Source of the DNA: Escherichia coli
GTDB taxonomy: Bacteria; Pseudomonadota; Gammaproteobacteria; Enterobacterales; Enterobacteriaceae
Reading direction: 5' to 3' (one strand)
Assembly: GCF_016903815.1 (NCBI RefSeq)
Contig: NZ_CP069973.1
Length of the DNA stretch: 64,000 bases
In this document: one piece after another, positions 4,215-47,855 of the stretch
Layout: every line of letters begins with the position of its first letter
Numbering within the stretch: the first letter of the stretch is position 1
Notes under the pieces: model-generated
What the model was told of the DNA's origin: nothing
Database searches by the model: none
Seen by the model: the letters and a program-made list of their open reading frames with translations, nothing else
Program-made: the position numbers and the translations under genes

Positions 4215-5105
4215 TCAGGCTGCCAGATCATCGTTTCCGATGGAAGCATAATAAGCTTTTTCTGCTTCTGCCGGAGGAGTATGGCCCAGCCTTCCCAGCA
4301 ATCGTCGATTGTTATACCAGTCCACCCACGTTAGTGTGGCCAGTTCCACTTCTGCACGGTTTTTCCAGCTCTTACGGTGTATTACCTCCGCTTTGTAAAG
4401 ACCATTGATGCTCTCAGCCATCGCGTTGTCATACGAGTCGCCTGTACTCCCTGTTGATGCCAGTAATCCGGCTTCTTTTAGTCGCTCCGTATAGGCCAGT
4501 GACACATACTGAGAGCCTTTATCGCTGTGATGGATGGTGCCAGACGGACGACGGGCCCACAACGCCTGCTCCAGCGCATCCAGCACGAATGTCGTTTCCA
4601 TAGACGATGAGACCCGCCACCCCACGATGTATCCGGCAAACACATCAATGATAAACGCCACATAGACGAAGCCCTGCCATGTGCTGACGTAAGTAAAATC
4701 AGCCACCCACAGCTGGTCAGGTCGTTCTGCCACGAACTGACGGTTTACGCGGTCGCCTGCGGCAACGGCTTTCCGGCTGATGGTCGTACGGACCTTTTTA
4801 CCCCGGAGAACACCGGCAAGTCCCATAACCGCCATGAGACGTGCCACTGTACATCTGGCCACCCTGATTCCTTCCCGTAACAACTGACGCCAGACTTTAC
4901 GCACACCGTACACCTGATGATTTTCATCGTATACGCGCTGTATCTCTCTCTTCAGCCAGTCGTCGTGCTGCGCACGGGCACTGCGTTTATCCGGATGATG
5001 TCGCTGTTGCTGACAATGGTAATACGTTGACGGGGCAATATGCAGTTCGCTGCATACCGGTCCGACCCCGTACTGCTCACGCAGCTTATCCAGCAGTGGC
5101 ATCAT
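4215..5105 (-). CDS. IS629-type transposase OrfB (DDE integrase core)
   Basis: 296-aa ORF with IS3-family DDE catalytic core (e.g. [16 protein letters not shown]). Confidence 0.9.
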
Positions 5106-5428
5106 TTTTTCCAGAGGCGGTCGAACTCCGCCTTCGCAAAATAAGCGGAAGCCTGGCGAAGGATATCGTTACTGCGGCGCAGTTCACGATTTTCACGTTC
5201 CAGCTCTTTCAGACGCTGACGTTCAGCGCTGGTGAGCCCACCATCACCGCCCCCGGTATCCCGCTCATGCTGGCGAACCCAGACACGCAGAGTCTCCGGC
5301 GTACAGCCAATCTTTGGAGCAATGGAACAAATTGCCGCCCACTGTGAGTCATATTCATCCTGACTTTCCAGAACCATACGAATCGCCCGCTGACGGACTT
5401 CGGGGGAAAAACGAGTATTTTTAGTCAT
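5102..5428 (-). CDS. IS629-type transposase OrfA (helix-turn-helix)
   Basis: 108-aa [26 protein letters not shown]...; IS3-family orfA, overlaps orfB for programmed frameshift. Confidence 0.9.
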
Positions 5429-5453: not shown

Positions 5454-8400
5454 TTAGTCTCCAGGATTTCCGGGGCGGTTCAGCTGTTCATTAAAACGTT
5501 GTCCAGGCTGATCATAAAGTGCGCGTAATGTCTCCGCGGATGGCCGCGGTTGCATTTGCTGCATGCAGGGTTTCTGGTGGTAATCAAAATACTGTGGCAG
5601 ATGCTGGATCTCTGCTTTGTTTTCAATTACCCGTTGAAGGGCTCTTTGACGCAACTCTCTTGATGATTTGTCACGGATCGATTCCAATTGTAGCTGGCTG
5701 CCGCTACTAATTCGCTTACGAGCAGCATCAAAATCAAAGCGAATAGCCAATAGACTCGGCGTAGTCTCACTTAGCTGCAATTCCCCTAATTGCACTGATT
5801 CACGCTTATCTTTAATATAAACAATGATCTTATCATCAAGTTCAAAGCTGAGGTCAGCACCGGATTCCGTAGTATATGGGTAGAGTAAGCAACCACTCGG
5901 TGATTCCTGAAAGTCAGTAGAGTCGATGTTGACTATATCTCGTAGGTCTACTTCTGTATCAGATAATGCCTGCCATAACTCAATTGGGCTTGACTCACTA
6001 CTATCGAAGTCATCTTCATCCATCTCTTGATTAGGATTAGCTCGCTCAATGATGGCATCAATTACTGGCTCGAGGTTAAACAGTAGTTCAATAAAAGTAT
6101 TACGCTGATTAAGTGAGCCACGTTGTAATGAAAGTTGAGTATTAATTTTAGCCTGGGAATATTTACCAGCCTTTATACTTTCTTCGATCGATAATCCTTT
6201 TTCATACACTATTCTATTAATAGTGCGATTATCAGGATCTAAGTCTATCAATAGCCGCTCTCCTAGGCCAGTGATGTAACAACGCAATTCATGCGCAAAG
6301 CGTGGGTTAGATGACCAGTTACATTGAAAATAATAGATCCCATCATTTTGTTCTAGAAGCTTCACTTCTTGCGGCCAATCATCTGTGCCCCAGCAAACAG
6401 GAATTACCTTATCCTGTGACTCAGACGCCACAACTTGATTAATCTCAGCTTGTTCCGGTGCTCGAATTGACTGCAGCAAAGGATCGAGCGCGATAGGTAT
6501 ACCGTCAACGGTTTGTTTTGCGCGTTCTAGCTCAGCCTGCACCAGTACTGGCATATCTTCACTAAATAGCTCCTCCACCATACGATATACTGCAAAGCAA
6601 TCTCGCCCAAAAGCATCAGTACTTTCGGGATTCTCTGGCTGGTAGCGATTATCTGCAGTTAATTCATCACTGAATTCAAGCAATCCAATCAGAGTAATTA
6701 CTGTCTGCTCCCCGACTTGTACCAGCAGTTTCTCTGGGCAAAGATCTCCATGAGGTAACTGCTTTTCATGAAAAGCATGAATGGTGTTGATCAACTTTTC
6801 CGCAATTGTAAAACGTTGGGATTGTACTAACACGTTCTCAGCAATAAACTGTGACCACGGTAGGCCATCCACATACTCGCTCACTACATACAAGCCGCCT
6901 TGTCCTAATAGTCCATAGGACTGCACCTTAGGAGTTGGCAGATTTATATGCGTAAGCTTATCGATCCGTTGCTTAAAAGCGTGGATACGGCGGTTAACAC
7001 CAGGTTGTTGAGGGGTCAAAATAACACCATCCCACAATTTTACCTGCAGAGCTTTCCCACCTTGTTCACAGTGATAACTGATGCTGCCAGTCGTAGCAAT
7101 AGCAGCAAGAGCAGAGTAAACCATAGACAACTGTTCAGGAAGTGGAGGAAACTCAATTAACACACCAACGCTGTTCATCCCTTCGCGAAAGAATTTGTTT
7201 TGCTTTAATTCTTGATAAATCTGGTTAGCTTCATCAAATTCTTGGCTATGTTCCTTAGTAGCTGCATTAAACTCATTGAGCATTATGTCCGCACGTGGAA
7301 AGCGTTTACTTGGCTCAAGGTTAAGAGCTTGCTCAAACCAGCTATTTAGAATACCGCTAAAAGGATCAGTTAATGGAGCTCTCCATTCAGGCATCTGTCC
7401 AGGAGTCAGTAATGATTCACCTGCAAAACAAATACGATAAGCAATTACAGCCAACATGAATACATCTAGGCGATAGGGCTCAACTGCTTCTTCAAAAGCA
7501 TCTTCGGGCAAAATATATGGAGCACTTTGCAATGTCGGACGCAATGACTCTAGGCTATTATGTCCCTCCAGTGAGGCTGCGCCAAAGCCAGTAACGACAA
7601 TGCTCTTCTGATCCCCTGCGTACCATAGATTGTGCGGGTCAATATCACAATGACTGATACCCAAGCTATGTAATTCCGAGAATGGAGCTAATAATGCACG
7701 AACGCGATCAATACGCTCAGATTTACTCCATCCGTCAGCTTCGCTATCTAGAATCTCATCTAATCGGCTAAAACTACGGCGTAACTCATACAGCTCACGG
7801 GCATCATCAGTTATATCCTCCTCGGATAGTTCCCTTACAGCACGCAACATATAATCCTGCATAGTTGCGCTGCCATGACGAACTAGGCGACCGACTCGAG
7901 TCTCACGCAGAGCTATCTCAGCCCACAATGTTTGCATTGCGTTTGCTACACCCAAGGCATCAAAGTTCCACTGCCGTAGCAGACCTCTGTGTTGACTATT
8001 GTCTTTGTGGGTAGCCCTGAATTCGTTGTAGACCATGTGAGGGTGACTAAAGAATGGCTTATCGTTCGCAAGATAACCGCTTTCTTTTAGTGGCAAAGGC
8101 CTGACTTTTGGTCCTTCAAAGAAGGACTTAATTATAGGTAATGCCTCATCAGAATTTGGTCGAGGCTTTCCCCCTTCAAAAAGATGAAAAAAGTTAGTGT
8201 GTTGCACCAGCTTTTCGTAATTTTTTGGGTTACCTATAGTCAAGAATTCATCACGGGTATGAACATAGCGCCTCTCACTTAATGGCAAGTTTTCAGGACC
8301 AGCTGTGCCACACAGCACTACATGAGCCTCAACATGCAAAAAGTAACCCAGCTTACGAGATAACTCTTCCTGCAACAAATCTTTTAGTCGCAGTGCATGC

Positions 8401-8678
8401 TCACGCTTGATCTGATAGGGACTTTTGCCTCGTGACTTACCATTTTGCAGCCACTTCCCCCCTTCAAATGTGATGTTACCATTCCACTCTTTAAGCTCGA
8501 CTAATAGCAGACGGTCAGCAGTAATAATTAGCATATCGATTTCCATCGACCCTTGGCTATCAGTAACAACTAAGCCAGCATAGCCAAACCAACTATCTGG
8601 TAACTGCTTAACCATCATATCAACTGTTTTGGTTTCGCTGCGGTGCAGGCCAGCACCACCTACTATCTGATACTTCAC
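5454..8678 (-). CDS. Large uncharacterized protein: N-terminal NERD-like nuclease-related domain followed by two protein-kinase-like domains and a ~370-aa C-terminal region; native 3' end replaced by IS629 sequence
   Basis: 1074-aa ORF; NERD-like motif [22 protein letters not shown]; kinase catalytic-loop-like motifs [11 protein letters not shown]...GFG and [11 protein letters not shown]; last 9 codons (LNRPGNPGD) are encoded by the IS629 inverted repeat. Confidence 0.7.
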
Positions 8679-18128: not shown

Positions 18129-18884
18129 ATGTTAATGGCGCAGCAGTTATCTTTCAGATTATTAAGGGGAAACAAGAGTATGGCAAGATGTACAGCTCCT
18201 GTACGTGGACATAGCTCAGCAGCAGCTGCTGCTGCCTGTCCCGCATGTCGTAATCGCAGTGGTTATCGCCGCAGTAGCTACAGTTATGATAGTTACCCTT
18301 CTTACTCATCAGGCTCTAGCGGTGGCGGAAGTTATGGAGGCAGTAGCGGTGGTTCCAGCAGCAGCGCGAAGCCACGTTGGTCAAAATCAGGGTCTTCCGT
18401 TTCTTACACAACAGCCCAAGTACAATCACTCACACCAATTCGACAAGCGGTAGAGAAACTTGCCATTGAGCAACCTGATCTGCGTGATGTCTTTCTTTGC
18501 CATGCTTGGGATGACCGACAAGGTATTGCCAAAGAGTTACACGATTTGCTCGAAGCGGCAGGTGTCAAAGTATGGTTCAGCGAAAAGGATCTTGCCCTTG
18601 GTGTTCCGATGATGCGTGCCATTGATAAAGGATTAGCAAACTCTCGAATCGGCTTGGTTTTAGTGACACCTGCATTGTTAAACCGTCTTCCTAAAGAAGG
18701 CGTTGCTGATAAAGAACTTTCCGCCTTACTGGCAGGCAACCAACTCGTTCCCATCGTGCATAACACGACGTATGAAGCTCTCCGTAATGTCAGTCCTTTG
18801 CTTGCATCCCGAAGCGGCCTCGACACGGGAGAAGATACATTGGCAGTTGTTGCAACAAAAATTGCAGAGCTGATCACTGTTTAG
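18129..18884 (+). CDS. TIR-domain protein with Ser/Gly/Tyr-rich low-complexity N-terminal region
   Basis: C-terminal ~140 aa DVFLCHAWDDRQGIAKELHDLLEAAGVKVWFSEKDLALGVPMMRAIDKGLANSRIGLVLVTPALL fits the TIR pattern; start codon uncertain (18129, 18135 or 18180). Confidence 0.75.
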   Translation: MLMAQQLSFRLLRGNKSMARCTAPVRGHSSAAAAAACPACRNRSGYRRSSYSYDSYPSYSSGSSGGGSYGGSSGGSSSSAKPRWSKSGSSVSYTTAQVQSLTPIRQAVEKLAIEQPDLRDVFLCHAWDDRQGIAKELHDLLEAAGVKVWFSEKDLALGVPMMRAIDKGLANSRIGLVLVTPALLNRLPKEGVADKELSALLAGNQLVPIVHNTTYEALRNVSPLLASRSGLDTGEDTLAVVATKIAELITV

Positions 18885-39656: not shown

Positions 39657-40655
39657 TCACTCCTCAATAAGTTTATCTAAAGGAATATAATATAATTGAG
39701 CAAATCTTTTTTTATGATCCCCAAGAGCAAACATGATAACCAATGATTTTGATTTGCGATCAATAGCTAAACCTTCAGGTTCCCAATGTTTTTCTTTGCC
39801 ACTGTTAAGAGAATCTTTTTTCCCTACTGTTACATTATTAAACTTTCTTACAAGCTCTCCTTTTAACGTGTAAATATAGATTCTTTTGTTTTCTCTATTC
39901 CCTCCCCCACTCAACAAATATATATATTTATTATCAGCGGTAATGGCTTGCAATACATAATTATCATTGGTTAAACCTGCATCGATAAACCATTCTATAT
40001 TTTGTTCTGATGAAATATCACTCTCGATTCGAAAGTTAACTTCTTCACTATTATAGACTCTTAATAAGTCTCTACCATTCAACTTACTTCTTACTATTAA
40101 ATATTTAGCATCTAAGGTTAAAACAGGCATTGTACTAACACGAGTATTATATGGTCTATCGAATATTTTTATAATTTTCATCTCATAAGGAAAAGAAAAA
40201 TCATTGTATTTAAAATATGTAACAAACCATCCTTTGTTAGCAAAGGCATTTCCCGCAGACGTTATTACCCCCCCCTCAAAAGGATCAAACCCAATTCCTT
40301 GATGCCCAATAAATTCAGTGGGTTTTTGAAATGACAATGCTACAGCTTTTCTTTTTTTTGTTGTTAATGAGAATCTATTTATAACTCCTTTTTCGGGTTT
40401 CCCTGTGGTATGTAAAGTATAAATATCAGAACTAAATCTATCAATCACGACTCCTTGAACAATATTATTTTTACCCTCGCCATCCCTATATAATCTCACT
40501 TTTCTCGTAACAATATCATCATTTAAATGAGAAATAAAATTAGCCAAAGGTATATTTGTTGCAGATGATGAATTATGCAACAACATTAATATCAAAAAAA
40601 ATAAATTTATATACTTCAAACACATTGAAAATTTTTCATATGAACCGATTAGCAT
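39657..40655 (-). CDS. kps region 2 hypothetical protein (AT-rich, function unknown)
   Basis: 332-aa ORF in low-GC serotype-specific region. Confidence 0.5.
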   Translation of the reverse strand: MLIGSYEKFSMCLKYINLFFLILMLLHNSSSATNIPLANFISHLNDDIVTRKVRLYRDGEGKNNIVQGVVIDRFSSDIYTLHTTGKPEKGVINRFSLTTKKRKAVALSFQKPTEFIGHQGIGFDPFEGGVITSAGNAFANKGWFVTYFKYNDFSFPYEMKIIKIFDRPYNTRVSTMPVLTLDAKYLIVRSKLNGRDLLRVYNSEEVNFRIESDISSEQNIEWFIDAGLTNDNYVLQAITADNKYIYLLSGGGNRENKRIYIYTLKGELVRKFNNVTVGKKDSLNSGKEKHWEPEGLAIDRKSKSLVIMFALGDHKKRFAQLYYIPLDKLIEE

Positions 40656-41037
40656 AATATTAGATTATACCAAATAAACGCACTAACCAAACTTGAATTT
40701 AAAAACACAGTTCACAACTTAAGAAGCACTATTTTAAACACATTGATAAAACAATGAAAATCCCGCAAACACTCTAATTATTAAAATACATAAAAATAAA
40801 AATCGTTATAAAAAAAGTTATAATCCATCAAAAACAAAAAAATGCACATAAAATATTTCTGTTTAAGAAGATGTTATAAATACAATATTTAATTCATCAA
40901 ATGTTTTTCTATTGGCAATTTACTAAACTGTATTTACAGTATAAAAAATACTAAATACATTTCCACATCAGAGGTGATCACAAAACAACCACCTCTTGCA
41001 GTCATATTTTTTACATCTGCATGGTTTTTAATATTAA

Positions 41038-42204
41038 TTATGAAAAATAAGTTTCATACCTTTTTTTATATGTTTCACTTTCAGGGGATAGACTATATGC
41101 CATTTGGGCCATTTTTTTTGCATCTTCCAATAACCCTTTCCTTTCATATATTAGAGATAGATTATAATACGAGCCAGCAGATGAAGGCATTAAAGATATA
41201 TATTCATAGAAATGCTGTATTGCCTGATCATATTTTTTTGACATCCTTAATGACTTTGCCAAATTATATTTAGCTGTTGTAAAATGTGGCGAAATACCGG
41301 CAACAAAAGCAAACTGCTCTACAGCTAAAGTATAGTTCTTGAGCTCCATATTTACTAAAGCAGAAATAAATATAGCAGGTTCGAGTAAAGGTTCAGCCAA
41401 CAAAGCTTCCCTGATTAAAGATTGAGCAGTGGAAAAATCTTTGTTGACAAATGCCTGGTAAGACAGGAATATATTTTTTGATAAGATTTTATTATGGCAA
41501 AGATTATTAATCTCTTTAATTTCGGGAAGTGTGTTATTTTCCACAAAAAAGGTTATTATATTAGGCATTCCATATCTTTTATCTATAAACCGCCCCACAC
41601 CATGTGTTACTCCTCGAACGGAATACGCTTTAACATTTTTAAGATCTGAAATCCTACTCAATGAAAGTAAATCAGGAAAATCCATTTCCCCACTTAATGC
41701 TGTGATTCTACATTTAGAGTTTTTTATAATTGGGCGTAGATTCTTATATATAATTTTTGTCTTTTTAGGAATTCTTTTAGCACTACGGCTCAAGGGATAT
41801 TTTAGTACCGTGTCAAAGCTAAAGGCTAACACACGACAATCCAGAAGAGCGCCAAATAATGAAGCTGCATATCCTCCCATACTGACGCCTATTGTTATAA
41901 TCTCGTCACAACCTAGTTGTTCAGAAATATATTTTATTTTTTCTATTGTTTCTGATATTGAAGAACTAAACCCTGGAATACTATCTTGGTACCATTCATT
42001 TTTACCATTGTTAATTAACAAAATATTATATGGCAGTTCATCTGCTGATTTCCAAAAATCAAAGCGGCCATCTTTTTTATCTGTACCAGAAAAAAAGACG
42101 AGCAATTTATTAGACGTTTTTTTAATCAGTCTATGAGAAACCCCATGCTCATTTATATTTAATTGTAAATTCATATTTTTATTATCTAAAGTCATGATAT
42201 ACAT
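41038..42204 (-). CDS. kps region 2 protein: alpha/beta-hydrolase-like N-terminal part with C-terminal TPR-like repeats
   Basis: 388-aa ORF; GVSMGGYAAS nucleophile-elbow-like motif; helical repeats at C-terminus. Confidence 0.5.
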   Translation of the reverse strand: MYIMTLDNKNMNLQLNINEHGVSHRLIKKTSNKLLVFFSGTDKKDGRFDFWKSADELPYNILLINNGKNEWYQDSIPGFSSSISETIEKIKYISEQLGCDEIITIGVSMGGYAASLFGALLDCRVLAFSFDTVLKYPLSRSAKRIPKKTKIIYKNLRPIIKNSKCRITALSGEMDFPDLLSLSRISDLKNVKAYSVRGVTHGVGRFIDKRYGMPNIITFFVENNTLPEIKEINNLCHNKILSKNIFLSYQAFVNKDFSTAQSLIREALLAEPLLEPAIFISALVNMELKNYTLAVEQFAFVAGISPHFTTAKYNLAKSLRMSKKYDQAIQHFYEYISLMPSSAGSYYNLSLIYERKGLLEDAKKMAQMAYSLSPESETYKKRYETYFS

Positions 42205-42232
42205 CCATTTTTTTAAAAATTGATAAGTAACT

Positions 42233-43423
42233 TTACACTTTTAACTTTCTAGAAAATAAATTTTTCGCTTTTCTGTAAAATGGTAGTTTTTTATTCTTAA
42301 TGGATTTTTCAAGTTTATTCAGCTTTGGCTTACATGTTCGAAGCTCTTGCACAGTCTCTCTAACATAGAGCTGCGTTTGTGTTAGTGGCGGAATTAACCC
42401 ATTATATAGTTTTTTTATATAGTTAATACATAGCTGTGAAGCATTTACCTCTTTATCTACGTAAAAAAGACTTTCACGAAGATTTGATGCTCTTAATACA
42501 ATATCTTGACAGTTATTGAGACAGTGAATTATGGATGGTTCAAAATCAGAAAGACTAGTGCAAACATAACCTATCTCGTCTCTATGTTTAAACTCTAAAG
42601 ATGTAAGATCAAATTTTTGAATACCTATTTTGTTTTTCAATCCAGCTTGATATAGAAGAATAGGTTTTTCTGCATACATACCGTCAAATATAGCCCCAGA
42701 AAAATCACTTATAATCAAATCTGCCGCACAAAGCAATTTTAATTGGTCCGCAGAACCATCGTAAACATGTTTTAAGTTTGCTTTATTTGCAGAATCTACC
42801 CATTCAGGTATTTTTGCATCATTATTGTGATGCATCTTTAATATAAGATTATATTTTGATTGTAACCGAGATATTGTATCCAGAAGTTCAAAATATGAAC
42901 CCAACTCCCCCCAAGTAGGCATGTAAAGCAATGTCTTTTTGGTTATATCTAATTTTAATTCTTTATAAAGCTCTTCTCTATTTGAGTACTTTTGTTTGTA
43001 CTCTAACCAATTATCAAACTTTGGATTTCCAACAGGATAGGATGGCGCATAGTGAGAAACAATATTAGATGAATAGTCACCATACATTAAATTCATGTCA
43101 GCAAGAGAACGCCATTCACCATAATTATGGCGCTCCTTTGCTAAACCATATTGTATTGAAACTAATTTACTATTTTTAATTTTCTCAATACCAGGAAAAG
43201 CCGACTGAAAAAGTAAGATATCATGAGTCCCATCAATAACGGGAACATCATGGGGCTCAATATACACTACATTCCATGATTTGTTATTAATTAACTTCTT
43301 GGGAAACAAGGCAAGGTTATTGTTTTTCCTAATAATAAAAATAGTTGGTTTTTCTAATTTTAATGCAATAGATTTGAATTGAATCAACTGGAATGGATTC
43401 CAGATTATAAATCCTACTTTCAT
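42233..43423 (-). CDS. CDP-glycerol glycerophosphotransferase (TagF/TagB-like), capsule polymerase candidate
   Basis: 396-aa ORF with TagF-like C-terminal region (LLYMPTWGE..., ISDFSGAIFDG). Confidence 0.65.
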   Translation of the reverse strand: MKVGFIIWNPFQLIQFKSIALKLEKPTIFIIRKNNNLALFPKKLINNKSWNVVYIEPHDVPVIDGTHDILLFQSAFPGIEKIKNSKLVSIQYGLAKERHNYGEWRSLADMNLMYGDYSSNIVSHYAPSYPVGNPKFDNWLEYKQKYSNREELYKELKLDITKKTLLYMPTWGELGSYFELLDTISRLQSKYNLILKMHHNNDAKIPEWVDSANKANLKHVYDGSADQLKLLCAADLIISDFSGAIFDGMYAEKPILLYQAGLKNKIGIQKFDLTSLEFKHRDEIGYVCTSLSDFEPSIIHCLNNCQDIVLRASNLRESLFYVDKEVNASQLCINYIKKLYNGLIPPLTQTQLYVRETVQELRTCKPKLNKLEKSIKNKKLPFYRKAKNLFSRKLKV

Positions 43424-43429
43424 ATTTAT

Positions 43430-44689
43430 TCACTTTGTAATTTGTTCAAAAATTATTCTTTCTTTATCCCATTCATGCAGGTGGGTTCCCACTTCATTCT
43501 CATCAACAAAATAATGAGTATGAAAATCTTTATTGTTATGGAAATGAGTAAAACCGAACAAACATTCTTTGGGTATTTTACCAACTATAGAGTAAACCCA
43601 ATAGGCAACTGCTAGTCCTGTACTTGGTAGACCATCTAGTTTTTTTATAAGTGATTTGTACACATGATTTGGTATAACCGTATATTCCATTTCCATTAAT
43701 TGTGGAGCAAGAAAATATTTGTTTGCATCTCTTCTTTTTATTGTGAAATTATTCGCCGCAAAAATAACAAGTCTATTGTTTTTGAGATTATTATTGCTTA
43801 CTTCTTTATTTGCCACTCTAACCCATATATCCTGCTTTGTACCATAATCATCCGGATAGTCCAGGGTATAATTGTTTATTCTAATCACTGTTTTTTTAGA
43901 ATCAATCAACGCTCCATGACCGGTATTTATTTCTGTTGGTGCATTCCCAACAATACAAAAACTACCAGCGGAATTTCTAATTGATTTTATAAACTCATTT
44001 CGTGATTTTAAGATGTGAGAATATTGTTCACTTCCTCTTTGTATATATGGATCATTAAAAATCTTATTCTTTTTAATCTTGTTAAAAACATAAGGACTGC
44101 TTGTATATTTCAACAGAAACTTTTTCCCTATTTGCTTAATAATTTCATTAGCTTTAGCATCCTTATCATTTTGATATAACATTATTGCCAAGCGTAATTT
44201 TTGACTTTTATTTAAATTTCTCAATGATACATCAGAGCAAAGTCGTGATATTATTCTTTTAAGCCTGTCTGATTTATAGCCATATTTTTGTGAAATAAAA
44301 TCAGAATACCTAAGATTAATAGTTATTTCTTTATTTCTGTAATGCGCTGAAATAAAATGTTTTTCTGTAATATCGCTATAGTTACGATATCTTAGTAACC
44401 AATCAGCAATTGAGTAATGAATGTAACGTGATTTTACTTTATTGAATAAGTAAAAAGGTACTATCCCTACATTATCATGCGTTTTTTTTATCTTTATAAA
44501 CAGCAAAGAATTAATAAAATGAAAAAAATGAACTTTACGTATAAACCAAGAACCTTGTAACTTCACCACATTATCTTCACCTATAAAAATGAGTAATCTC
44601 ATTATTAGCTTGTCATAAATACTATATCTAGAAAAATAAACATCTTGCGCTTTTTTTATGAGTATTTTCTTTATTGACATATTATGCAA
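43430..44689 (-). CDS. Putative capsule glycosyltransferase
   Basis: 419-aa ORF in region 2 between the TagF-like and TagD-like genes; family not resolved. Confidence 0.45.
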   Translation of the reverse strand: MHNMSIKKILIKKAQDVYFSRYSIYDKLIMRLLIFIGEDNVVKLQGSWFIRKVHFFHFINSLLFIKIKKTHDNVGIVPFYLFNKVKSRYIHYSIADWLLRYRNYSDITEKHFISAHYRNKEITINLRYSDFISQKYGYKSDRLKRIISRLCSDVSLRNLNKSQKLRLAIMLYQNDKDAKANEIIKQIGKKFLLKYTSSPYVFNKIKKNKIFNDPYIQRGSEQYSHILKSRNEFIKSIRNSAGSFCIVGNAPTEINTGHGALIDSKKTVIRINNYTLDYPDDYGTKQDIWVRVANKEVSNNNLKNNRLVIFAANNFTIKRRDANKYFLAPQLMEMEYTVIPNHVYKSLIKKLDGLPSTGLAVAYWVYSIVGKIPKECLFGFTHFHNNKDFHTHYFVDENEVGTHLHEWDKERIIFEQITK

Positions 44690-44782
44690 GTTTCTTTTGT
44701 TAGTTCGCTCTAAGCCTCAACAGACATAGGTGTTCATTCCCTTTTCAAGGGGATGAACACCTACCTGAACATAAACATTAAT

Positions 44783-45190
44783 TTAACTGTATTTTTTAAT
44801 CTCCGTAATAAGTTTTGTAGTAGAAATGCCTTCCGTCCTTGGTAAATAAATAACCTCGCATAACTTTTTAAACATATCAAACTTTCCTTCCCAATCATTA
44901 CCCATAATAAGAATGTTAGCTTTATATTTTTTTATATACTCACCTTTTAATTCAAGTGACTCCTCAAGAAATACGTCATCAACATATTGTAGAGAACGAA
45001 TAATTTCACATCGCTCATTTTCTGGGTAAACTGGGTATCTTTGCTTTTTAGAGAAACTTAATGCATCGGATGACACGCCAACAATTAATCGATCACCATA
45101 TTTCTTTGCTCTTTCTAAAATTTTAATGTGGCCAATATGTAAAACATCAAATGTTCCAAAGGTTATGACTGTACGCATTGTATATTCCAA
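44783..45190 (-). CDS. Glycerol-3-phosphate cytidylyltransferase (TagD-like)
   Basis: 135-aa ORF with nucleotidyltransferase motif FGTFDVLHIGH. Confidence 0.85.
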   Translation of the reverse strand: MEYTMRTVITFGTFDVLHIGHIKILERAKKYGDRLIVGVSSDALSFSKKQRYPVYPENERCEIIRSLQYVDDVFLEESLELKGEYIKKYKANILIMGNDWEGKFDMFKKLCEVIYLPRTEGISTTKLITEIKKYS

Positions 45191-45347: not shown

Positions 45348-46022
45348 TCAATATGTATTAATTGTTATGTTGTTTTTATACTCCTCTATCCCCTCCTGAA
45401 CATCCTCATGAAAACTAACCGCATTATCATCCATAAACACAATGGCCACATCGCAAAACTCTTTCAATGAATTCAAACTATGTGAAACCATTAAAAAACT
45501 AGATTCTTTATGCCTTTCTTTAAACAATTGAGCGCACTTTTCTTTAAACCTGGCATCACCGACCGCCGTTACTTCATCGACGATATAATAATCAAACTTA
45601 AATGCCATGCTTAAACCAAAGCCCAGGCGAGATCGCATACCTGATGAGTAAGTTTTAATCGGCATATCAAAGTACTTACCGAGTTCGGCAAATTCTTCGA
45701 CAAACTCAATTTTCTCTTTCAGTTCTTCTTGCTTCGCGTATAACCGCGCAACAAATTTTACGTTTTCGCGTCCGGTTAAACTTCCCTGAAATCCACCTGC
45801 GAGGCCGACTGGCCATGATATTGTTTTATTAGTGATGATCTTTCCACTGTCGGGGCGGTCAATGCCGCCAATCATTCTCAGTAACGTTGATTTACCCGCT
45901 CCGTTGCGACCAATAAAGGCAACACTTTTTCCTGAAGGGATTTCAATATTTAAATCCTTAAAGACATAGTGTCGACCCGTTGGCGTGCGATAGGACTTCG
46001 TCAAATTCTCAATCTTAATCAT
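45348..46022 (-). CDS. kpsT: Capsule export ABC transporter ATP-binding protein KpsT
   Basis: 224-aa ORF MIKIENLTKSYRTPTGRHYVFK... with Walker A GRNGAGKST. Confidence 0.92.
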   Translation of the reverse strand: MIKIENLTKSYRTPTGRHYVFKDLNIEIPSGKSVAFIGRNGAGKSTLLRMIGGIDRPDSGKIITNKTISWPVGLAGGFQGSLTGRENVKFVARLYAKQEELKEKIEFVEEFAELGKYFDMPIKTYSSGMRSRLGFGLSMAFKFDYYIVDEVTAVGDARFKEKCAQLFKERHKESSFLMVSHSLNSLKEFCDVAIVFMDDNAVSFHEDVQEGIEEYKNNITINTY

Positions 46023-46795
46023 GATGTCAGCATTGCCTCTTCACGCGTTCGGTATAACGCCAGACCGATGAACAGGGTGACCAGAGTGAACATTGCCAGG
46101 TAGTTCAGACTTACGCCTTCGCTGATATAGCCAGGCATAACAGCCTCGCGGCTTAGCTCCACCACATGTACTAATGGGTTCCAGAGTAGATATGACCAGT
46201 ATTGCTTTGGAATCGAGTGTAGAGGGAACATGATGCAGGAGATGAAATACAGCGGCTTAAGCAGTATCGGCAGAACCTTTTGCATTTCGGGGAAGGTTTT
46301 ACCAACGACCATGAATATTAAGCCGACGCCACATGAAAGAATGATCAGCAGGCTCCAGGTAGCCACAAGTTGTAAAAAATTTGTTATCTCGAAATATTCG
46401 CCTGCCATCCAGACAATGAGCATAAGCAGAATATAAACAGCAACGTAAATCAGTGTCTCAAGCAGTGCGCGTGCAATGATCGTATCGATGGGTTTTACTG
46501 GTCGATAATTAAACAACCCCTGATTCGCTTCAATAGCACCTACAGAACGATTGCTGATACTGCTAAAGATAAAAAAGGGAATCAGGCCATTAAGTAAAAA
46601 CACCGGGAATGAGATGTCTGGCATCGTGCGGTGCATAATGTAACCAAAAATGCCCAACAGTATCAGCAAATGCGCAGAGGGTTCGAGAATCGCCCACAAA
46701 TATCCCAGACGGAACTTACCAAAGCGTGTTCGTATTTCTCGTAGAAATAATGCCTCTACGGTGACTTTCTGGACTTCAAATCCACTTCTTGCCAT
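46019..46795 (-). CDS. kpsM: Capsule export ABC transporter permease KpsM
   Basis: KpsM sequence begins MARSGFEVQKVT at codon 48 of the 305-aa ORF; upstream in-frame part is leader. Confidence 0.88.
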   Translation of the reverse strand: MARSGFEVQKVTVEALFLREIRTRFGKFRLGYLWAILEPSAHLLILLGIFGYIMHRTMPDISFPVFLLNGLIPFFIFSSISNRSVGAIEANQGLFNYRPVKPIDTIIARALLETLIYVAVYILLMLIVWMAGEYFEITNFLQLVATWSLLIILSCGVGLIFMVVGKTFPEMQKVLPILLKPLYFISCIMFPLHSIPKQYWSYLLWNPLVHVVELSREAVMPGYISEGVSLNYLAMFTLVTLFIGLALYRTREEAMLTS

Positions 46796-46823
46796 TTGAT
46801 GATGTGATCCTAATCTCTTCAGG

Positions 46824-46835
46824 TACGCTACCGCC
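46824..46835 (-). promoter_or_regulatory. ops (operon polarity suppressor) element GGCGGTAGCGTA in kpsM leader (RfaH-dependent antitermination)
   Basis: Minus-strand GGCGGTAGCGTA is the reverse complement of plus-strand tacgctaccgcc, just upstream of the kpsM start. Confidence 0.7.
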
Positions 46836-47855
46836 CCTGGCTTAACAGCTACCAATACACTGGAGGTAATACTTGACTTGTTTGTAACTGGATAAAATTC
46901 ATTCGGACGGCTTGACCTTTTAATAGCCAAAAACAATTTCAGCAGAAATTATTTCCGCAGGGATAAATAGATCTATTTCCGTCTCGTTTCTTCTAATCCA
47001 TTCTTCAGGCATGAATGTATTCGGTCTTCTGGTAATTTCAGAAAACTGGCCGTTTTAGAATGCAGAGTTAATTTCTCAGGAAATTATTTTTTGTGATTAC
47101 TGTTAACTACTTGATTATAATATCCCCTATGGATTTTATGCGTAACAATACCTACAATCTGTTTCAAACCAGAACGCACGCGATTGATTACCAATAAATT
47201 GTTCACCGAGAAACTATTTCCCTATTTAAAATTCACTCGTGTACTTCTTATTTATATCTACAGCCCCCTCTTTACAGCCATATTTGTGATTCATATCACA
47301 TTTAAATGGTGTTATTTAAGTCGCATCAATAATCCCGAAGGTAATTATTTTCGTCGATTAAAATATACATCTTGATTATTTTGTGTGTTTATTTTAACCA
47401 GTGTTACAACCAACACCATCCCTCAGTAGATATACCTGAGCAGACATTTCTTAAAATCAACGAATAGTTTCACTGGAAATTATTATGCTTATTTGAAATT
47501 CCCTTTCTGATTATCTCCAGGAATTTTACTAATTTCCAAGCTACACAAAATACAGATCACACAAGAATTATCCTATATGTTTTGGCCTATCAATTGTTAC
47601 TCAATGATTTATTGCAACTATTAATAATCATAATGTGTCAAAACACTTAAGCAACTTTACAGTCTGAGAAAGGTGTCGATTAACGAAGGCTACATGGTGA
47701 AAAACAGGTTCCTTCAGTGTTACCGAATATTCCGTGGTGGTCTGGAGGGAGATAATTCTTGCTACATCGAAACTCAGCCCGGTAAGCGGGTTTGACAGTT
47801 CCGCACTCACCATTGGGCTAAGGGTTATCAGGTGGGGTTAAGGAAATGGCAATAC

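Follow-up and report, generated by a model that had tools for sequence, protein, structure and literature searches.

Gene arrangement of the kps locus and its leader region

The stretch of DNA analysed here (64 kb, in the following called the window) carries the E. coli group 2 capsule (kps) cluster. Its transporter genes lie on the minus strand, with kpsM, encoding the ABC-2 type capsule-export permease, at 46019..46795 (ATG start, 777 nt, 258 aa; RefSeq WP_000124290.1 has the same coordinates) and kpsT, encoding the ABC ATPase, at 45348..46022 according to the ORF listing and the annotation. The stop codon of kpsM and the start codon of kpsT overlap as ATGA (46019-46022, minus strand), which points to translational coupling between the two subunits of the transporter. 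Next to kpsMT follow, on the same strand, the five AT-rich genes of the serotype-specific region 2 (39657..45178, minus strand, delimited by annotation, Pfam domains and GC profile), while kpsS, C, U, D, E and F converge from the opposite side. On the upstream side, the intergenic region between yghD and kpsM extends over 46796..47855 (minus strand) and contains the long leader of kps region 3. The same neighbourhood is found in strain 7/2, where pppA, gspS2, gspC-L and yghD, belonging to a type II secretion system, are followed by 1060 nt of intergenic DNA, kpsM and kpsT. A 1-kb query over the leader matched 1845 of 5426 complete E. coli genomes, and was 100% identical in strain 7/2 and 99.9% identical in BL21(DE3).

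The GC content of region 2 is 28-33%, compared with 50-55% in its flanks, which is typical of H-NS targets and fits the published model in which RfaH counteracts silencing by H-NS. By analogy with K5 and CFT073, region 2 should be the distal stretch whose expression needs RfaH-dependent read-through. In K5, the distance from promoter PR3 to kpsM downstream of it is 741 bp (PMC8960920), and with the same spacing PR3 would be expected somewhere near 47.5 kb in the window. A promoter scan of the leader yielded three hits, among them a GATAAT at 47515-47510, against 3.8 expected by chance. Because these hits are at chance level, transcription of the ops element described below is argued from orthology. 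Usable 5′ RACE data on kpsM were not found in the literature.

The gene set of region 2 is unusual and overlaps only partially with the K2 region 2 of CFT073. One gene encodes a cytidylyltransferase-like protein, which RefSeq names ‘pantoate--beta-alanine ligase’. Others encode a protein resembling the GT29 (sialyltransferase) family, a CDP-glycerol glycerophosphotransferase-like protein and a TPR protein, and a further product of 322 aa matches the Pfam family of phage receptor-binding 5-bladed propellers and carries the RefSeq name ‘phage baseplate protein’.

A JUMPstart element with an ops sequence upstream of kpsM

Scanning the whole window with Rfam, we detected a JUMPstart element (RF01707) of 39 nt at 46824..46862 on the minus strand. 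The match, read from 46862 to 46824, covers the model completely (positions 1-38 of 38) and reaches 57.1 bits with an E-value of 1.8e-10, the gathering score being 35. Inside the element a 5-bp hairpin is predicted (46855-46851 with 46841-46837), followed by GGGCGGTAGCGTA. The 3′ end of JUMPstart is formed by the ops 12-mer GGCGGTAGCGTA (46824..46835, minus strand), which matches exactly on the coding, non-template strand of kpsM and includes an exact copy of the ops core GGCGGTAG at 46835-46828. The 12-nt consensus GGCGGTAGCGTG is matched at 11 of 12 positions, with A in place of G at position 12 (46824) and with T11, the predicted pause position, at 46825. An earlier reading, made from the sequence without database searches (in the following the sequence-only reading), had placed an ops element at 46824-46835 on the minus strand. 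The letters found there, the JUMPstart score above threshold and the consensus match all bear this out.

The ops element is on the non-template strand of its operon, the strand shared by kpsM, kpsT and region 2. Its 3′ end is 28 nt away from the ATG of kpsM, the first gene, and this spacer (46796..46823, minus strand) contains a weak and distant Shine-Dalgarno (SD)-like AGGA at 46811-46808, 12 nt from the ATG.

For comparison, we assembled seven further kps leaders, chosen at regular intervals along the similarity ranking (80-98% identity), and the leader of CFT073, which together with the window give nine alleles. All eight comparison leaders are annotated with a kpsM of 777 nt. Each of these eight contains JUMPstart, with scores of 53.6-58.5 bits and with its end 28 nt from the ATG in every case, and a T at ops position 11 is found in all of them as in the window. 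The alignment of kps leaders, a check that the sequence-only reading had proposed for K1/K5 loci, places ops at the same distance from kpsM in all nine alleles.

A short motif such as GGCGGTAG is expected to occur by chance in a sequence of this length. There are two copies in the window compared with 1.06 expected, two or more were obtained in 30 of 100 shuffles, and a relaxed 12-mer pattern was likewise present at chance frequency. The significance of the ops element therefore derives from the 39-nt covariance-model match and from the fixed distance of 28 nt in nine alleles, not from the 8-mer. The E-value of this 39-nt model, the recurrence of the same sequence at the same position in nine alleles whose leaders are otherwise 80-97% identical, and the published experimental evidence at the orthologous site leave a negligible probability that the match is a functionless chance occurrence.

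The second exact copy of GGCGGTAG (GGCGGTAGCGAG) lies at 38715-38708 (minus strand), antisense inside kpsS and in the direction of transcription of regions 3 and 2. It is identical in CFT073 and has AG at positions 11-12, not TG or TA. We considered it as an internal site for reloading RfaH and rejected this possibility in view of its antisense position in conserved kpsS coding sequence and the AG at positions 11-12. In CFT073, RfaH signal was absent from ops-like sites outside of leaders (PMC9765446). The second copy is probably a chance match within a conserved coding sequence.

The reading frame upstream of kpsM

In the ORF listing of the window, the longest ORF of kpsM comprises 305 codons and extends over 46019..46936 (minus strand), with a TTG start. 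The conserved start MARSGFEVQK opens with the ATG at 46795 on the same strand, leaving an extension of 141 nt (46796-46936). The sequence-only reading had described the same arrangement, a 305-codon ORF beginning 141 nt 5′ of MARSGFEVQK, and on direct reading of the strand all coordinates agree. Its description of this extension as annotated holds in part: the 305-aa form does exist in automatic gene calls, whereas RefSeq kpsM has 258 aa. RefSeq starts the protein at the position equivalent to 46795 in strain 7/2 and in eight other genomes. By exact look-up in public protein collections, we found the 258-aa KpsM on at least 1000 contigs and the 305-aa form on 62 contigs, the latter from Logan/ENA automatic calls. 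A third form of 278 aa, starting at a conserved TTG at -60, occurs in GenBank records including ATX44869.1. Among 43 sampled full-length rows of the leader match, we found no RefSeq feature lying under it.

Homology to KpsM begins at about residue 47 of the 305-aa translation. PDB 8tsh, a solved KpsM homologue, aligns to residues 47-301 with an E-value of 4.6e-62, and the alignment to the NCBIfam KpsM model extends over residues 60-302 with 187 bits, a score below its equivalog cut-off of 300 bits. Residues 1-46 gave no match to either of them. The 47-aa extension therefore does not share the properties of a part of KpsM, being neither a conserved, continuously open frame nor preceded by a start signal, as detailed below.

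Conservation of the leader and a 5-nt duplication

In an alignment of the nine alleles from -200 to +60, the segment from about -100 to the ATG is near-invariant. Two indels fall inside the proposed extension, one of 5 nt at columns 125-129 and one of 1 nt at column 81. The larger one corresponds to a tandem duplication, CAAGT CAAGT, at 46871..46880 (minus strand) of the window; most alleles possess one copy of CAAGT, the window two. Walking upstream from the kpsM ATG, we encountered an in-frame TGA at -102 in seven of the nine alleles. The frame is open for 153 nt in the window and for 144 nt in KP63, the closest other allele, which has no start codon beyond -60. Among the nine, TTG codons at -141 and -135 are found only in the window allele. 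The 5-nt duplication shifts the upstream frame and fuses it to kpsM, which gives rise to the 305-codon ORF in the lineage of the window allele.

To what extent this duplication is spread was estimated with a 121-nt query (-5 to -125), for which 1606 genomes gave a full-length match. About 153 of these are at least 95% identical to the query, the rest approximately 90-92%, and every sampled match of the latter type spans 116 instead of 121 nt, pointing to a lack of the duplication in these genomes. Judged by these matches, about 10% of the kps-bearing complete genomes appear to carry the 5-nt duplication and about 90% appear to be without it. Because most genomes are without it, the 305-codon ORF is an accident of a minority allele.

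Could the 305 codons nevertheless be translated, from the TTG at 46936, so that KpsM gains 47 aa and the ops-like sequence is just coding? The frame open over 153 nt, the TTGs at -141 and -135 and the protein called automatically on 62 contigs would agree with such an extension. Both the -141 TTG and the open frame beyond -102 are, however, confined to the minority allele with the duplication, with KP63 being open there and lacking a start. Furthermore, neither of the two TTGs has an SD sequence (0 and -3.5 kcal/mol, at 16 nt), residues 1-46 show no homology, RefSeq gives 258 aa and the JUMPstart match is full. Taken together, we regard a genuine 305-aa KpsM as extremely improbable.

The stretch of 141 nt (46796..46936, minus strand) is better described as untranslated leader, a classification based on the indels, the in-frame stops, the comparison of TTGs and the limits of homology. 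The sequence-only reading had proposed the same, that the extension is leader RNA and non-coding, and it is upheld by the indels, the TGA in seven of nine alleles and the lack of both SD sequences and homology.

A shorter extension has to be considered separately. In all nine alleles, the frame is open over the 102 nt preceding the ATG and includes a TTG at -60 (46855). An isoform of 278 aa starting there would make the JUMPstart/ops sequence both a regulatory element and 20 codons. Besides this shared open frame with its TTG and the GenBank annotations such as ATX44869.1, the solved KpsM homologue, in which about 13 residues precede the start of the alignment, would be in line with such an isoform. 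The 102-nt stretch is almost invariant, therefore sequence comparison alone is weak against a 20-aa extension. The -60 TTG lies, however, within the 5′ arm of the JUMPstart hairpin, which explains its conservation, and 34 stop-free codons are ordinary by chance ((61/64)^34, about 0.2). Three of the five substitutions in the 20 codons are non-synonymous (G/R, R/I and L/I), compared with a single, synonymous change in the first 20 codons of kpsM, both being small numbers. The TTG has no SD sequence (-0.2 kcal/mol), with an upstream ACCTCC that itself resembles the anti-SD, and in the sampled rows RefSeq never used this start. We therefore consider a 278-aa isoform highly improbable.

The start of kpsM at 46795 has a practical side. 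Longest-ORF calling over the kps leader yields spurious KpsM proteins of 305 and 278 aa, and both have entered public collections; these extended database entries are mis-calls. Recognition of JUMPstart offers a simple rule for correcting the kpsM start.

Translation start signals

We compared the start sites by their best duplexes with the anti-SD sequence. The three upstream TTGs, at 46936, 46930 and 46855, are without an SD, with best duplexes of 0, -3.5 and -0.2 kcal/mol, respectively, in poor spacing. For the kpsM ATG, the best duplex reaches -4.0 kcal/mol at a spacing of 11-12 nt, and the ribosome-binding sites of the region 2 genes are weak as well. The corresponding values for kpsF, kpsU, yghD and gspL are -7.4 to -9.5 kcal/mol at 4-6 nt. 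RfaH targets are known to lack canonical SD elements and to depend on contacts between RfaH and S10 (PMC5995543). The weak SD sequences at kpsM and in region 2 fit this mode of ribosome recruitment.

Comparison with known RfaH targets

The element in the window is the ops/JUMPstart of kps region 3 and as such already known, including its dependence on RfaH. It has been described for K5, K1 and K2 (Stevens et al. 1997, as cited in PMC8960920; CFT073 in PMC9765446). According to PMC8960920, a 2022 review, RfaH-dependent read-through from PR3 into region 2 relies on an ops located 28 bp before kpsM. These loci have the same JUMPstart at the same distance of 28 nt, with yghD upstream, kpsMT downstream and a co-directional region 2. 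Searching the literature for the exact 12-mer yielded cloning primers and nothing else; these are primers for K1 that carry the identical GGCGGTAGCGTACC, which indicates that K1 strains share the ops sequence.

In CFT073, ChIP-seq located RfaH together with RNA polymerase at or downstream of the single ops in the kps leader and throughout the unit (PMC9765446). Deletion of rfaH lowered the occupancy by RNA polymerase downstream in kps, and H-NS-StpA coats all RfaH targets of this strain (PMC9765446). At ops position 10, A is found in CFT073 and NCTC86 (GGCGGTAGCATA) and G in the window, and in CFT073 this sequence is at the same distance from the ATG as ops in the window. Further differences are the tandem duplication of 5 nt, which the window allele carries 36 nt upstream of ops, a leader insertion of about 115 nt that is present in CFT073 and missing from the window, and the gene set of region 2. 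Descriptions of this element, of where it lies and of its need for RfaH go back to the 1990s, and ChIP-seq confirmed them in 2022, so that the locus adds little new biology in these respects.

Positions 1-11 of the window ops are identical to those of the RfaH targets in E. coli K-12 (ops12 GGCGGTAGCGTG, PMC5995543). In both cases ops occupies the non-template strand in the leader of an operon, and the genes downstream of it have poor SD sequences. They differ at position 12, where G in K-12 is A in the window, turning the pause-inducing TG into TA. The A is shared by all nine kps alleles, so that the consensus G is absent from each of them. All validated K-12 RfaH targets have TG at positions 11-12 (PMC5995543). 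A G12C mutant lost the U11 pause and kept RfaH recruitment; T11G was strongly defective (PMC5995543). Since the CFT073 orthologue with A12 gives an RfaH ChIP-seq signal, A12 is compatible with membership in the ops class, and variation at position 12 is evidently natural and tolerated. Very tentatively, and with the odds clearly against it, we suggest that the ops of capsule loci may load RfaH without the consensus U11 pause, perhaps through the JUMPstart hairpin or through elongation slowed by H-NS, either of which might leave RfaH enough time for binding. If this were true, kps would represent a natural variant class of RfaH-loading sites.

A more distant relative is the JUMPstart upstream of wzi in the group 1-type capsule locus (L009) of E. 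coli AR_0150. It scores 53.9 bits and has the same hairpin followed by GGGCGGTAGCGT, but belongs to another locus and operon, has C at position 12 and is located about 370 nt before the first gene instead of 28 nt. In the same locus, RefSeq annotates a ‘hypothetical protein, frameshifted’ pseudogene at 1492-1619 on the opposite strand, over the wzi JUMPstart. Here, too, a spurious gene has been called on top of a JUMPstart element.

Proposed mechanism of read-through

From these observations, we conclude with a probability of about 0.95 that ops/JUMPstart lies in the 5′ untranslated leader of kpsMT (region 3), where it serves RfaH-dependent read-through, and that the 141 nt are not codons. The loading of RfaH and the RfaH-dependent progression of RNA polymerase in the window strain would follow the orthologous loci; the rfaH gene itself is absent from the 64-kb window.

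According to the model, transcription would start at PR3, several hundred nucleotides upstream, and proceed through the leader. When RNA polymerase reaches GGCGGTAGCGTA, the exposed non-template strand would form the small ops hairpin with T6 flipped out, and the polymerase would pause at about T11/U11. RfaH would then bind the ops hairpin and the polymerase and remain attached through the operon, excluding NusG and suppressing Rho- and H-NS-dependent termination. Through its refolded C-terminal domain, RfaH would contact S10 and help in loading ribosomes at the kpsM ATG 28 nt downstream. The expected result is that transcription continues for about 7 kb, across kpsMT and the AT-rich genes of region 2. 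The ops hairpin, the refolding of the RfaH C-terminal domain and the contact with S10 in leaders lacking an SD sequence have been described (PMC5995543), and support for the loading of RfaH at the DNA level comes from a crystal structure, from in vitro assays and from ChIP-seq (PMC5995543, PMC9765446).

The element might alternatively act as RNA, with the JUMPstart hairpin/ops RNA occluding the ribosome-binding site of kpsM and the small RNA RyhB relieving this block, instead of RfaH loading on DNA. Rfam models JUMPstart as an RNA hairpin, in which one pair varies between U-G and U-A across the alleles with pairing kept, and a 2025 paper with a GFP fusion proposes that RyhB pairs with the kpsM leader including ops (PMC11988350). 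The interaction site of RyhB is, however, a prediction, the hairpin consists of five pairs only and its sole variation is one-sided. When we folded 180 nt of leader RNA, the result was no better than for shuffled sequences (z = +0.72), and the minimum-energy fold did not contain the Rfam hairpin. The DNA-level mechanism, by comparison, is backed by the structural, in vitro and ChIP-seq data cited above. An RNA-level role in place of RfaH loading is thus improbable, and in view of this folding result, RyhB or another RNA-level function would be at most an additional layer on top of RfaH-dependent read-through.

Further features of the window

The window is collinear with E. coli strain 7/2 (99.6%) from 29631 onward only, and the island content of positions 1-29630 differs. 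No tRNA genes were found in the 64 kb. An IS3-family element is located at 4215-5428 (minus strand), with orfA at 5102-5428, orfB at 4215-5105 and, at 5147-5031, a frameshift pseudoknot detected with Rfam (ALIL, 121.5 bits). It adjoins an ORF of 1074 aa with NERD and kinase-like domains (5454-8678, minus strand), which matches the PADLOC model of the Mokosh protein MkoA with 627 bits, covering profile positions 2-1030 of 1607 only. From its sequence, this ORF looks like a defence gene whose 3′ end was truncated by the IS insertion.

A TIR-domain protein of 251 aa, encoded at 18129-18884 (plus strand), matches PADLOC ThsB of the Thoeris system with 424 bits. Near this gene we found no ORF of the size of ThsA, and about 1.5 kb upstream of it are without any ORF of at least 60 aa; it may be an orphan ThsB or belong to a degraded Thoeris system. 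The segment 9902-13929 encodes the type VI secretion baseplate proteins TssG and TssF, which stand alone beside IS66 fragments (a TnpB-like ORF and a truncated TnpC) and are apparently the remnant of a T6SS cluster.
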